Source: a virus (taxonomy: Duplodnaviria; Caudoviricetes). Taken from it: 30,382 nucleotides of DNA. The notes under the pieces are model-generated. The model was not told the origin of the DNA, did not search any database, and saw only the letters and a list, made by a program, of their open reading frames with translations. The stretch's first letter is position 1. Every line of letters begins with the position of its first letter. Shown here piece by piece: positions 8,089 through 30,382 of this stretch. Location: positions 1 to 30,382 of the IMG/VR virus record IMGVR_UViG_3300044681_000392; one strand, given 5' to 3'. The position numbers were made by a program, and so were the translations under genes.

Positions 8089-10718
8089 GATCCAGTTACC
8101 GTCCATCCTTTAGCTGTAGCAATAGAAGGTGTGTCATCTACTGTTCCGTGGTTGCTAGTCACGGTAATTGTTTGGGATCCTGCTGCCGTTCCTAAAGATG
8201 TATAAAGATTATTTAGGGCGGTTCCGTCAAGCCTCATTCCAGAAACATCCACTGCATATCTCAGTCCAGTTAAAATTATTGAAGATAAATTTGTAAAGGC
8301 TGAACCGCCAAACATGTTGGTTGGGGATGAGGTAACACCAGTAAGGTTAAAGCTTACGGATTTTAAAGCCCTTCGTGCACTATTCACAAAAATAAATGAA
8401 CTAGAAGCAGTAGTAGTATAATAAGTAGTACTTGAGGAATAAAACATAAAACTGGCTGAAGTGATTGCAGGAGTATTAAGTGTTACAGTCTCTAAACTAA
8501 TTGTATTAACTAAAAAATTCTGTAATCCCGAACTAGATATTGCAGATAAATTAAAAGATGGTATAGATTTTAATAAAACACAATTTTTAAACATACTACT
8601 CATACTAGTAACAAAAGATGTATTAAATAAAGGAACTGAAATCAAAGAAGTGCAGTCTTCAAACATACTATTCATAGCTGTAACAGAAGATGTATTAAAT
8701 AAGGGAACTGATTTTAAAGAAATACAAGCAGCAAACATATTATTCATATTTGTAACAGCAGATGTATCAAACAGGGGAACTGATTTTAAAGCAGTACACC
8801 CATAAAACATATTATTCATAGCTGTAACAGAAGATTTATTAAATAAGGGAACTGATTCTAAAGCAGAACAGTTCTCAAACATATAACCCATATTTGTAAC
8901 AGAAGATGTAACAAAGAAAGGAACTGATTCTAAACTAGTACACCCATAAAACATATTAGACATAGTTGTAACAGCAGAGGTATTAAATAAAGGAACTGAT
9001 TTTAATGAATCACATTCATAAAACATACTAGACATACTTGTAACAGAAGATGTATTAAATAAAGGAACTGATTTTAATGAATCACATCCATGAAACATAT
9101 AAGTCATATTTGTAACAGCAGATGTAACAAAGAAAGGAACTGATTCTAAAGCAGAACAGTTATAAAACATATAACTCATATTTGTAACAGCAGATGTATC
9201 AAACAGGGGAACTGATTTTAAAGCAGTGCACCCCTCAAACATATCACTCATATTTGTAACAGAAGATGTATTAAATAAGGGAACTGATTTTAAATTAGAG
9301 CAAGCAGAAAACATATTATTCATATTTGTAACAGAAGATGTATTAAACAGGGGAACTGATTTTAAAGACCTACAAGCAGAAAACATACCAAGCATAGTTG
9401 TAGAACTAGATGTATTAAATAAAGGAATAGACTCTAAGGACAAACAACCATAAAACATGTAAGACGTATCCGTTACTGATTCTGTGTTAAATAACGTTAT
9501 TGATTCTAATGAGGAACAGTTGTAAAACATATAAGAAGTATTTGTAATTGTAGAATTACTACCAAATGAAACATTTTTTAATTTTATACAATGTGCAAAT
9601 AAATATGCATATGATGTTAGATTACTAGATACAATATTTACTCTTTGTAGATATCCCATATTAAATGTAGGGGTGATTGACCCAGTTAATTTAATTGTTG
9701 TTAGATTTGTTCCAGCAATTGCTATATCTAACCACGGAATTTGTGCGGAAGTACTAAGGTTTGTTCTTGTAAATGTTTGTTGTAGATCTAATATTGTTAA
9801 ATTTTGTCCCGCCTGCGGAGTTACTGTAACAATAACTTGCTTAAATCCTTCAGATGTTACAGTTGAAGAAATTGATGAGTAAGTATATTTATGTGAAGCC
9901 TTTGTATTTGATGTAAAATCTTCTGGAGCTGATCCATCGCCCCAATCAACTGTATAATCTCCTTGTGCTAATAACGCAACATAGTTTGAGTCATCATTAG
10001 ATATTCCAAGGAGACCGACAAATTTTTGTTCATTTGATTGGGGTGCAGTCAAAGTAATCCAGTCAGCTGGTCTTGTCCAACCAATAATTGTTCCCGCTGC
10101 ATTAATTCCATCTTGAAGAATATGATAATTTGAAACTGTTGGCCTAGCAACTCCAGGATTTTCAACAATTATTGAGTATGGAGAATATTCTGTTGGAAGC
10201 GTATCTGGTGATGTTATTGTCAAAGATGTGGCCGAATTTCTTGTTACTGAATCTGCCGCTCTTTCTACCCCATCAGTTCCTTTAAAATACACCGCTACGT
10301 TTGATGCAAAATTTGAACCCTCTACGTATAACTCTGCATTTACAGTATTTACAAATGCTGGATTTATAGAAGAAATTACGGCAGCAGCTGTAGTCTCATT
10401 TGATGTAGATGTAGATACAAATCCAGACTGGTTATACGAGAATGAAATTATATCTGATGCTGTTCCGCCTAAAATTACTAATTTATTAAATTCTCCTGTA
10501 GTAGTTAATGTAAGTCCACTTGATGTTCCAACCAATGTTCCAGATGAATTATATGCATATGCATCTATTGATGAATCTGCAAGGACTGAGGATATGGCAT
10601 ATTTGCCAGCAGGATAATTTGAAGATAAGGTTGTAGTCGTAACATTTCCAACTATATTTATAGAAAAATTATTAGCAGAGGATGATCCTCCCAGCAGAGA
10701 TGTTCTAATATCGCTCAT
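8085..10718 (-). CDS. BspA/DUF285-type leucine-rich repeat surface/adhesin protein with IPT/TIG- and PKD-like domains
   Basis: Likely start is MSDIRT at 10718 (TAATG overlap). It has an IPT-like ISSINP..VEGSNF, a PKD-like YTVDWGDGS and 14 repeats of xMxxMFxxCxxLxSVPLFNTSSVT. Confidence 0.85.
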   Translation of the reverse strand: MSDIRTSLLGGSSSANNFSINIVGNVTTTTLSSNYPAGKYAISSVLADSSIDAYAYNSSGTLVGTSSGLTLTTTGEFNKLVILGGTASDIISFSYNQSGFVSTSTSNETTAAAVISSINPAFVNTVNAELYVEGSNFASNVAVYFKGTDGVERAADSVTRNSATSLTITSPDTLPTEYSPYSIIVENPGVARPTVSNYHILQDGINAAGTIIGWTRPADWITLTAPQSNEQKFVGLLGISNDDSNYVALLAQGDYTVDWGDGSAPEDFTSNTKASHKYTYSSISSTVTSEGFKQVIVTVTPQAGQNLTILDLQQTFTRTNLSTSAQIPWLDIAIAGTNLTTIKLTGSITPTFNMGYLQRVNIVSSNLTSYAYLFAHCIKLKNVSFGSNSTITNTSYMFYNCSSLESITLFNTESVTDTSYMFYGCLSLESIPLFNTSSSTTMLGMFSACRSLKSVPLFNTSSVTNMNNMFSACSNLKSVPLFNTSSVTNMSDMFEGCTALKSVPLFDTSAVTNMSYMFYNCSALESVPFFVTSAVTNMTYMFHGCDSLKSVPLFNTSSVTSMSSMFYECDSLKSVPLFNTSAVTTMSNMFYGCTSLESVPFFVTSSVTNMGYMFENCSALESVPLFNKSSVTAMNNMFYGCTALKSVPLFDTSAVTNMNNMFAACISLKSVPLFNTSSVTAMNSMFEDCTSLISVPLFNTSFVTSMSSMFKNCVLLKSIPSFNLSAISSSGLQNFLVNTISLETVTLNTPAITSASFMFYSSSTTYYTTTASSSFIFVNSARRALKSVSFNLTGVTSSPTNMFGGSAFTNLSSIILTGLRYAVDVSGMRLDGTALNNLYTSLGTAAGSQTITVTSNHGTVDDTPSIATAKGWTVTGS
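8535..9545 (-). repeat. Coding tandem repeat, about 14 x 72 bp (24 aa LRR units)
   Basis: ggaactgatt recurs at a 72-bp period and the protein repeats are visible in translation. Confidence 0.92.
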
Positions 10719-28789: not shown

Positions 28790-28965
28790 ATTGGCATTTC
28801 CAGAACATAAGAACCCCTATACCCCTTAAACTATTTCTTTAAAGGAACCCCGAAAATGGCAAGTTATAAATTCGCATTTCATCGGTTAGATCTTATGTTA
28901 GGAAAGGCATTTCCGTCACATCTTGAAGTAGACCCCTTGATATTATCTCCAAAACTCTTCAAGGC
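28790..28965 (-). ncRNA. Putative structured untranslated RNA or long leader
   Basis: Follows promoter TTGACC-18-TATCAT (28999-28970). Several nested stems and no convincing minus-strand ORF. Confidence 0.4.
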
Positions 28966-29135
28966 CTTAATGATATCATGCACATTTTATTTAGGTCAAG
29001 ACATTACGAGATCTTTTTTAAAATCGCAGAATTTTTGATCAACTAAAAATCAAGTTTTCTAAAATGTTAATATATTTTTTATTTGTATGATGCGGGGTTT
29101 GGCAATGTCCGATTTGTCTAATTAGTGCGCCCATA

Positions 29136-29176
29136 TGTGATTTAATTCACAGAAAAATAATGTGATATGACTCACA
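29136..29176. promoter_or_regulatory. Two tandem perfect CRP/GlxR-type boxes
   Basis: TGTGA-tttaat-TCACA (29136-51) and TGTGA-tatgac-TCACA (29161-76). Confidence 0.75.
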
Positions 29177-29202
29177 ATGTCCGATTTATACGCATTTATA
29201 AG

Positions 29203-29232
29203 TTGATAAATGTCAGTGGGTAGGTATATAGT
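29203..29232 (+). promoter_or_regulatory. Early-type promoter 1
   Basis: TTGATA, 18 nt (containing ATGTCAG), TATAGT. Confidence 0.6.
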
Positions 29233-29263
29233 AAAGGTATTAGATAAAAGAAAGGTTCAACAG

Positions 29264-29380
29264 ATGAACACTATATATGAATCAAGAAACGACTACATGA
29301 TAGTAGACCCTAACGACTACATCACCTGCCCAGTATGGGGCTTTCAAGTTTACAAATCTCACGATTGCTCAAAGCACTAA
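29264..29380 (+). CDS. Small hypothetical protein (38 aa)
   Basis: MNTIYESRNDYMIVDPNDYITCPVWGFQVYKSHDCSKH. RBS GAAAGG. Confidence 0.65.
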   Translation: MNTIYESRNDYMIVDPNDYITCPVWGFQVYKSHDCSKH

Positions 29381-29396
29381 AGAAAGGAGCATATAA

Positions 29397-29564
29397 ATGC
29401 TAACTCAAACTACATTAAATAAAATCGTCTATGAATATCAACACGGCGGTGTTCAAGGTAATCACCCTGAACTAACCACCTATGAGCGTAAAGCTCTTCT
29501 AGGGTATCTCTTCAGACTACCCTCAAAATGCTCTCCTGAGTGTGAGGCAACTCACACCGCATAG
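29397..29564 (+). CDS. Small hypothetical protein (55 aa)
   Basis: MLTQTTLNKIVYEYQHGG...CSPECEATHTA. RBS AAAGGAG. Confidence 0.7.
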   Translation: MLTQTTLNKIVYEYQHGGVQGNHPELTTYERKALLGYLFRLPSKCSPECEATHTA

Positions 29565-29606
29565 GCGGCGTGTCGGGTTGAAAATGTCAGCCCGCTCTGA
29601 TAGTCT
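29541..29606 (+). promoter_or_regulatory. Early-type promoter 2 with a CRP-type box
   Basis: TGTGA-ggcaac-TCACA (29541-56), CGGCGTGTCG (29566-75), then TTGAAA (29578-83), 17 nt (ATGTCAG...TGa), TAGTCT. Confidence 0.7.
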
Positions 29607-29636
29607 AACGACATAACAAAATTGAATAAAAGGGTA

Positions 29637-29678
29637 TGAGCCTAGCAAATAAACCGAAAGGGTGAGCCTAGCAAATAA
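29637..29678 (+). repeat. 16-bp direct repeat TGAGCCTAGCAAATAA x2 in the 5' leader
   Basis: Exact copies at 29637-52 and 29663-78. Confidence 0.9.
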
Positions 29679-29729
29679 GACCCAGCCAAACAAACTAACT
29701 AACTAACTAAACGAATAGGAAATAAATAA

Positions 29730-29894
29730 ATGAAAATCACTTACTCAGTATGGCAAGGCTCTATCATCAAGGGCACAGGATTTACCGCTAACACAATGAA
29801 AGAAGTAATGAAAACAATAGATGAACTAAATGAAACAGGTGTAAAGCCTAAGTTTGAAGCGTTTATCTCTAAGGTAGAACAGGAAGTAAAATAA
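29730..29894 (+). CDS. Small hypothetical protein (54 aa)
   Basis: MKITYSVWQGSIIKG...KVEQEVK. RBS AGGA. Confidence 0.7.
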   Translation: MKITYSVWQGSIIKGTGFTANTMKEVMKTIDELNETGVKPKFEAFISKVEQEVK

Positions 29895-29896
29895 AA

Positions 29897-30070
29897 ATGT
29901 ATTCATGGGAAAACAATAATAACGATTATAAATACGAAACTATTCAACACTACGCACCCGTAGAAAGTTATAGTCACCTGGATGATGAACTTGAAATCTC
30001 CCTAGATGAAATGCTAGAATTAGAAGATGAAATTGAAATGGAAGAATTGGAAGGTGAGATTTATGCCTAA
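29897..30070 (+). CDS. Small highly acidic protein (57 aa)
   Basis: MYSWENNNND...LDDELEISLDEMLELEDEIEMEELEGEIYA, with 19 D/E, 1 K and 0 R. Confidence 0.7.
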   Translation: MYSWENNNNDYKYETIQHYAPVESYSHLDDELEISLDEMLELEDEIEMEELEGEIYA

Positions 30071-30161
30071 GAAAAATTGCTCCATGTGTTATGGTAGGGG
30101 CGTTATCTATGTAGGTAATCGCTATGAATACACTATAGAACCTTGCGAGTGTAAAGCATGA
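30063..30161 (+). CDS. 32-aa zinc-finger peptide (CxxCxGxG...CxC)
   Basis: MPKKNCSMCYGRGVIYVGNRYEYTIEPCECKA. AAGGTGA upstream. Confidence 0.65.
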   Translation: MPKKNCSMCYGRGVIYVGNRYEYTIEPCECKA

Positions 30162-30283
30162 ATAGATTATTAACTACCGCCGTCCAGCTTTTCCTAGTGG
30201 TATCCGCTGCCTATATGCTCCGCCTAATATGGGCAGACCTAAAACAAGATGTGACAGACACCATAAAAGATTTGCGAAAATAA
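30158..30283 (+). CDS. 41-aa membrane peptide
   Basis: MNRLLTTAVQLFLVVSAAYMLRLIWADLKQ... with an ATGA overlap. Confidence 0.6.
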   Translation: MNRLLTTAVQLFLVVSAAYMLRLIWADLKQDVTDTIKDLRK

Positions 30284-30284
30284 T

Positions 30285-30302
30285 CGGCGTGTCGCCTTGA
30301 CA
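30285..30302 (+). promoter_or_regulatory. Third promoter-like module
   Basis: CGGCGTGTCG-cc-TTGACA, the same spacing as module 2. No clear -10. Followed by ATGTCCGATTT (30350-60) and TGTGA at the window edge. Confidence 0.45.
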
Positions 30303-30382
30303 AAAGCTGATCTGGCCCCCACGCTTTTGCGGGCCCGATTTGTACCATTATGTCCGATTTTAAAAACCCCTGAAAAATGTGA

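Follow-up and report, generated by a model that had tools for sequence, protein, structure and literature searches.

We have studied a stretch of DNA of 30,382 nt (the window), which is a fragment of a tailed phage and is 24% complete. It has portal, tail and ribonucleotide reductase genes, together with tRNA genes. The portal has 58–60% identity with those of Streptomyces phages of the Stanwilliamsviridae, and WhiB is found in five out of five complete relatives, which points to an actinobacterial host. A peculiarity of the structural region is an 882-aa protein of unknown function which contains at least 12 repeats of 72 nt (positions 8470–9561). The early block has promoters of the PafBC type, and several DNA words are repeated around its promoters (ATGTCCGATTT, GGCGTGTCG and TGTGA..TCACA, in positions 29108–29190, 29566–29575, 30285–30295 and 30347–30362). 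The PafBC-type motif, given as tGTCgg(N10)tA(N3)T in a passage of PMC8635444, is confirmed in the window at 29211 and 29585. The second site is a candidate PafBC-dependent promoter, whose pattern it matches in positions 29585–29606. Behind it there is a leader which carries two identical copies of a 16-mer. The features of this region are collected in Table 1. A preliminary description of the leader had reported the 16-mer pair, the GGGT/ACCC arms, a hairpin capped by GAAA and an (AACT)x4 tract. All of them are there, position for position, but the central CUAG/CUAG helix and the A-box upstream of the hairpin had been overlooked.

Table 1. Features of the early promoter region and leader found in the window
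Feature	Position	Strand	Basis and remarks
PafBC-type promoter, first in the early block	29211..29232	+	Sequence and motif; no element behind it
Composite promoter	29578..29606	+	SigA-like -35, PafBC -26 box, extended -10
SigA-like -35, TTGAAA	29578–29583	+	Sequence; 17 bp spacing
PafBC -26 box, TGTCAG	29585–29590	+	Sequence
Extended -10, TAGTCT	29601–29606	+	Sequence
Predicted transcript start, AUA	29613..29615	+	Inferred from -10 spacing
A-box, here ACAAAAUUGAAUAA	29616..29629	+	Candidate site for NusA; predicted to be single-stranded
Outer stem, 5' arm GGGU	29632..29635	+	Pairing and covariation
Copy 1 of the 16-mer, TGAGCCTAGCAAATAA	29637..29652	+	Outer module 5' strand (29637–29643) and inner module 3' strand (29644–29652)
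CUAG of the central helix	29642–29645	+	Within copy 1
Inner hairpin, GAAA loop, A.G junction	29653..29662	+	64 of 64 distinct spacers fold
CC-GAAA-GG hairpin	29654–29661	+	Sequence
Copy 2 of the 16-mer, TGAGCCTAGCAAATAA	29663..29678	+	Inner module 5' strand (29663–29669) and outer module 3' strand (29670–29678)
Outer stem, 3' arm ACCC	29680..29683	+	Pairing and covariation
(AACT)x4 linker	29693..29708	+	Unconserved; falls at the junction at which relatives lacking the element rejoin
Shine-Dalgarno (SD), AGGA	29717..29720	+	Sequence
First downstream ORF, 54 aa	29730..29894	+	ATG at 29730; no family match
Three more small ORFs (57, 32 and 41 aa)	29897..30283	+	Same unit as the 54-aa ORF; no PHROG match

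The doubling of the 16-mer is not due to chance, since it is longer than any repeat obtained in simulations: the longest close direct repeat in positions 28801–30382 has 16 nt, as compared with 12 nt or less in all 200 dinucleotide-Markov simulations. The sequence has exactly two matches in the whole window, allowing up to three mismatches. The exact 16-mer was found in 119 viral loci, from 14 of the 64 parts of IMG/VR, and a second copy is present in 115 of them. Two of the remaining four are cut by the end of the locus, the other two are lone copies in one unrelated context. A pattern search for bases other than T in position 7 of copy 1 gave no matches. The AACT tract is not conserved, as two or more repeats are found in only 9 out of 285 elements. 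The folding energy of the window element gives no signal (z 0.19), so that the case for an RNA structure rests on comparison.

Looser doubled patterns lead to estimates of about 860 stretches of viral and 1,300 of metagenome sequence. The element is found in hundreds of contigs of freshwater actinobacterial phages, uncultured phages from lakes. In 185,579 prokaryote species genomes the doubled pattern is present in only four contigs of 1–10 kb, three of which carry the same phage-type promoters. These four contigs (L120–L123) come from MAGs that are not actinobacterial, and have the look of phage DNA binned by mistake. Cultured phages gave no blastn match to the element, and seven whole Streptomyces and Rhodococcus relatives no credible match to our model. 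The family had not been recognised in the preliminary description; a search of Rfam 15 returned only tRNAs and chance matches, none of them at gathering score.

The predicted RNA structure of the leader is well supported by its homologs. The preliminary description had placed the two motifs between an outer and an inner stem and suggested looking for covariation of the stems in phage metagenomes: the outer, central and inner stems do covary, while the motifs stay fixed. The outer arms match over at least 4 bp in 90 of 101 distinct pairs, as compared with 21% (maximum 33%) when partners are shuffled. The 64 distinct inner spacers all fold, with a mean of 4.3 bp versus 1.6. In an alignment of 85 elements 93.8% of the cells pair and two-sided changes appear at 10 of the 14 pairs; the covariation score is 0.467, versus 0.10 in shuffled and at most 0.15 in slid alignments. 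RNAalifold recovers the same three helices. Among 257 two-copy elements, the C-G of the central pair, which is formed between the two copies, is replaced by G-C in 21 and by A-U in 5, and inserts of 1 nt are complementary in 64 of this set. Six rows of this tally do not fit, at least four of which, judging by their spacers, are pairings made by the script across adjacent hairpins; one row with a 2-nt insert is not complementary. Homologs with a single copy or without pairing had been named beforehand as telling against the structure; what prevails is doubled copies and pairing. The sense strand has 21 G.U as against 7 A.C, and 37 of 113 spacers end in a GNRA loop, which favours an RNA transcribed from this strand.

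The true unit of the element is not the 16-mer, it is a 4x6 internal-loop module, UGAGCCU / AGCAAAUAA, with the general form 5'-UGAGCCU / AGCRADUAA-3'. The two 16-mers of the window are two modules placed head to head and stacked on the CUAG helix. Hairpins may have one, two or three modules, in either orientation. Our census has 124 two-module arrangements, 19 with three modules, 5 head-to-tail and 3 tandem 2+2. Its 104 single-module rows are mostly chance and were set aside: a loose single-module scan gives mostly chance matches, so its rows were kept only when an A-box precedes. Genuine single-module hairpins do occur, and a collapsed single 16-mer was found once, in G034. The density of modules reaches five within 250 nt. 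The two-fold symmetry which had been put forward as the principle of the design is thus incidental, since modules occur singly, in threes and head-to-tail. Identical strands are found in 538 of 569 cases for the 5' side and 460 of 574 for the 3' side, in searches whose patterns favour invariance.

The core of the module has 10 unpaired nt. A standard kink-turn has a bulge of 3 nt, followed by tandem G.A and A.G pairs. The module is no standard kink-turn: it has no tandem GA, and its possible bulge is directly followed by an invariant U. It is presumably closer to loop E and S-turn motifs. It may be drawn in the manner of loop E or the sarcin-ricin loop, with U-A, sheared G.A and U.A pairs and a variable bulge, and it resembles the GAG/GUA half of 5S loop E. 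It differs from loop E in being a 4x6 loop with mostly AAUA instead of AGUA. As regards mimicry of rRNA, no matching loop was found in the rRNA of E. coli or Tsukamurella. Some leaders with one or three modules, of the OCCTAG type (L246, L250, L276, L301 and others), keep a second hairpin of variable sequence between the element and the SD.

The hairpin is coupled to the A-box, a low-complexity sequence with consensus AMAAHUAAAUAR, which is found 3–9 nt after the predicted start. This is the case for 27 of 33 PafBC promoters with an element, as compared with 9 of 392 others, and 132 of 152 elements are preceded by an A-box. The predicted start position has ATA in 210 of 239 elements. In the relatives G041 and G047 box and hairpin are missing together, as one clean indel before the same gene.

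The A-box resembles the segment bound by NusA after the boxA of rRNA operons. According to a section of PMC8632103, the linker between boxA and boxC is the part of rrn complexes bound by NusA and SuhB. When scored with an A-box matrix, the decamers which follow rrn boxA are in the top 0.03–0.4% at four out of four Gram-positive sites: in Tsukamurella they take places 8 and 2 among 6,791 positions, ranks which are inflated by the high G+C, and in Priestia places 9 and 2 among 2,691. The E. coli sites rank 84 and 3,772 of 6,991; the leader decamer is in the top 1.2%, the spacer site is not high. The spacer of lambda nutL, AAAAUUAA, which binds NusA according to Table 1 of PMC2724277, is contained in 64 of 285 elements. 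The same article describes AUA as critical for mycobacterial NusA. On the other hand, boxA, whose Bacillus consensus is given in a passage of PMC13753749, is found in none of the 285 elements. A -10-like pause hexamer also fits the same letters of the A-box (145 of 239, versus 57 of 495), and is not independent of the box. YRAAUA is common to the A-box and the 3' strand of the module. Two cultured Streptomyces phages, StarPlatinum and Tomas, have a near copy of the actinobacterial rrn boxA and linker in an early leader, with the order hairpin, boxA, linker and GTGTG before a DUF945 gene (L373:2356–2590, minus strand; L504:430–490). This copy sits near the end of the early block. The corresponding leader of BoomerJR has no boxA and keeps the downstream hairpin.

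Elements are found at the head of early blocks, mostly behind promoters which SigA could use. They lie behind 24 of 190 promoters of rank 1–2, as compared with 1 of 484 of rank 6 or later. A SigA -35 is present in 19 of 32 PafBC promoters with an element and in 156 of 1,019 others; many other elements sit behind a plain SigA promoter. The element is always 14–49 nt behind the -10. Strong matches to the model are limited to one or two per genome, with up to three elements per contig. Some phages have the element on both divergent arms, some arms serving only 1–5 small ORFs, and in places cassettes of promoter plus element are found in tandem. Each gene group of the early block has its own promoter. 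In subclade B a PafBC promoter, too, serves the same ORF, and the element is missing from its transcript.

The sequences which follow the element are variable. An SD and ATG are reached 22–61 nt away in 74 of 152 elements, while 64 run directly into the next promoter with no ORF between them. The proposed control of a micro-ORF operon may hold where an ORF follows, but does not describe the latter group. The first ORFs after elements fall into 54 unrelated clusters. There is no terminator, as a U4 run follows the element in only 2 of 278 cases. The SD is unpaired at 0.66 in the median, and no alternative terminator or SD-sequestering fold was found, so that an expression platform is absent. 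Further downstream, U-tract terminators are absent in 10 of 12 subclade-B blocks; per 6 kb they amount to 2.1 with the element and 0.7 without it (p 0.11). Expression data on a relative give only scraps over its early block and none over the element.

The element is accessory, and its presence or absence before one and the same gene amounts to a clean indel. The ortholog of the 54-aa ORF in G041 has a similar promoter without the element. Two samples of block heads were drawn irrespective of the element: among 73 selected by a marker gene it is present in 33 and absent in 40, a count which includes one doubtful single and near-duplicates; nine selected by the portal have two full elements and a collapsed one. 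The clade nearest to the marker-gene query has it in 13 of 47. Within about -7 to +10 kb of the marker gene there is no ORF family whose presence follows that of the element. The best associated family (11 of 33 with the element, 0 of 40 without it) appears to be the marker of a subclade. A basic peptide which is conserved, ELRRSNAA...KKKYTRK (L253:13224–13355), is found in 48 of 79 long loci; it was rejected as a phage partner, since it also occurs without the element. It is weakly like DUF7230, has weak matches (E 0.2–0.8) in about 290 cultured mycobacteriophage records, and may resemble ArfA-type ribosome rescue factors.

We give a probability of about 40% to the element being a cis site which loads host elongation factors, with no N protein and no boxA. 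The predicted cassette, a single-stranded A-box and a hairpin with one to three invariant internal loops, would stand at the 5' end of the first transcripts; transcription and start site are those that we infer from the promoters. The A-box would probably load NusA, the internal loop might bind a further host protein or the polymerase itself, and additional modules would add avidity. RNA polymerase could then transcribe past the early block's untranslated gaps, the obstacle being presumably Rho rather than U-tract terminators. A protected transcript started by SigA would cover the block before the PafBC switch of the host fires 10–16 internal promoters. This reading is suggested by the position at head-of-block promoters, on both divergent arms in some phages, by the joint loss of A-box and hairpin, by the likeness of the A-box to the rrn linker and the nutL spacer, and by the absence of an expression platform; we also count in its favour the rrn boxA-linker copy of StarPlatinum and Tomas. 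Against it we find no boxA, no fixed loop like boxB and no N-like gene that tracks the element. Few U-tract terminators lie downstream, the gene groups have promoters of their own, divergent arms may be short and more than half of the blocks sampled do without the element. The A-box is of low complexity and also fits a pause hexamer, and the rrn boxA copy, absent from BoomerJR, is situated close to the block's end. The free number and orientation of the modules are also odd for an RNA which docks on one polymerase.

The element is nut/put-like by its position and lacks the sequence features which define nut and put. Like lambda nut it heads early operons, and an A/U-rich segment, predicted to be single-stranded and similar in sequence to the NusA-binding spacer of nutL, precedes its hairpin. 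Lambda nut consists of boxA, spacer and boxB, and works with N and NusA/B/E/G, whereas our element has no boxA, no boxB loop and no N-like, arginine-rich partner gene that tracks it, and its hairpin bears one to three repeated internal loops. In HK022, as described in PMC9378689, putL and putR follow PL and PR, and put RNA, which suppresses termination, forms two adjacent stem-loops of about 70 nt with a triplex which binds the beta-prime zinc domain of RNA polymerase. The element shares with put a size of about 60–75 nt, a place downstream of early promoters, sometimes on both arms, and no need for a phage protein; it differs by being a single hairpin with a repeatable loop, accessory, in an actinobacterial host. 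The rrn leader signal has the order boxB, boxA, linker and boxC and works with NusA/B/E/G, SuhB and S4. The A-box resembles its post-boxA linker in Tsukamurella and Priestia, but boxA and boxC are absent and the predicted transcript starts only 3–9 nt before the box.

Instead of acting in cis, the cassette might itself be the product, a multivalent decoy in trans, made first from strong SigA promoters, which soaks up a host protein that binds RNA, such as a defence sensor, a nuclease or a Nus/KH protein. This is the main rival reading, with a somewhat lower probability than the cis site. One to three modules per hairpin and up to five in 250 nt, in either orientation, would suit a decoy better than a cis docking site for polymerase. 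The elements with no ORF before the next promoter, the tandem cassettes, the patchy distribution, like that of anti-defence genes, and the YRAAUA shared by A-box and module point in the same direction. The decoys CsrB and RsmZ have multiple hairpin loops with GGA and are free small RNAs with a terminator. The element is like them in that an invariant motif of a protein-binding type is repeated on variable stems; it differs by having an internal loop, in one to five copies, placed within 5' leaders. There is no terminator here that would define a small RNA, there are only one or two strong matches per genome, and a cis role accounts better for the fixed place at the operon head.

It is improbable that the element is a stabiliser of mRNA or an enhancer of translation which, by attracting S1 or a KH protein to its box and loop or by blocking decay by RNase J/E from the 5' end, raises the output of whichever ORF follows. 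Its constant place behind the -10 and its indifference to the downstream gene, in front of which it can be inserted, would agree with such a role. But some 20 single-stranded nt before the hairpin do not make a simple 5' shield, a plain stabilising stem needs no invariant loop, and the ORF of subclade B is also served by a transcript free of the element. A riboswitch-like module which binds a ligand, or a small ribozyme, is very improbable, although the near-invariant loop residues and the 5' UTR position would fit. With no terminator or SD switch, unrelated downstream genes, no Rfam match and so small a core, the ligand-sensing switch suggested earlier finds little room. Still less credible is a tandem DNA operator, also mentioned in the preliminary description, or an activator of host PafBC in the form of RNA or single-stranded DNA, which the position of a near-invariant 16-mer next to PafBC-type promoters might recall. 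The repeats are spaced by 25–34 bp with no phasing, and the compensatory flips, complementary inserts, excess of G.U over A.C and GNRA loops are features of RNA. An RNA activator is disfavoured, as single-stranded RNA of 12 nt did not activate PafBC in an experiment reported in PMC11804915.

In summary of the literature, a full-text search for the motif gave no match. Four supplementary tables of Fremin 2023 (PMC10690425) do not contain it, though it may be among the 10,006 candidates of that work, and the passages covered from PMC10085705 have nothing relevant to the element. The element is a real modular RNA family with a putative job; it seems undescribed, though the alignments of Fremin 2023 or the supplement of Weinberg 2017 may hold it. 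A literature search for RNA elongation signals or decoys in actinobacterial phages returned none. We know of no such element described in these phages.

Returning to the loading of host factors, a tentative and somewhat broader idea is that the first phage RNA is a modular device for host takeover made only of RNA, with a NusA-type tail and a stackable loop, without boxA or phage protein. Evolution might have tuned the loop from one to five copies in order to capture an elongation or defence protein of the host, and the device could bridge the gap until the PafBC alarm of the host takes over early transcription. If true, the phages of the actinobacteria that abound in lakes would carry antitermination or decoy RNA of a new class. 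The element is small (60–75 nt) and near-invariant in hundreds of contigs. Nature provides controls, in that one promoter type and gene can be found both with the cassette and without it, and versions occur with one, two and three modules. Once its partner is identified, it should become clear how transcription begins in these phages before the DNA-damage switch of the host is on. It is also a possible compact, stackable RNA part for expression in actinobacteria.

Two other motifs were observed in related early blocks. A small RNA motif, found in about 110 other places and in L249:10877–10915 and L261:8890–8930, has a short stem, which covaries, and a CUGAGYA loop; the UAAAACURCUC that comes next is able to pair with the loop as an H-type pseudoknot. 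It has no Rfam match and lies after stop codons and before tRNAs. Other head-of-block promoters (L600, L601, L608, L621, L634) have a different accessory leader, formed by an A-rich run and a GCGG...CCGC hairpin with an A-rich loop.
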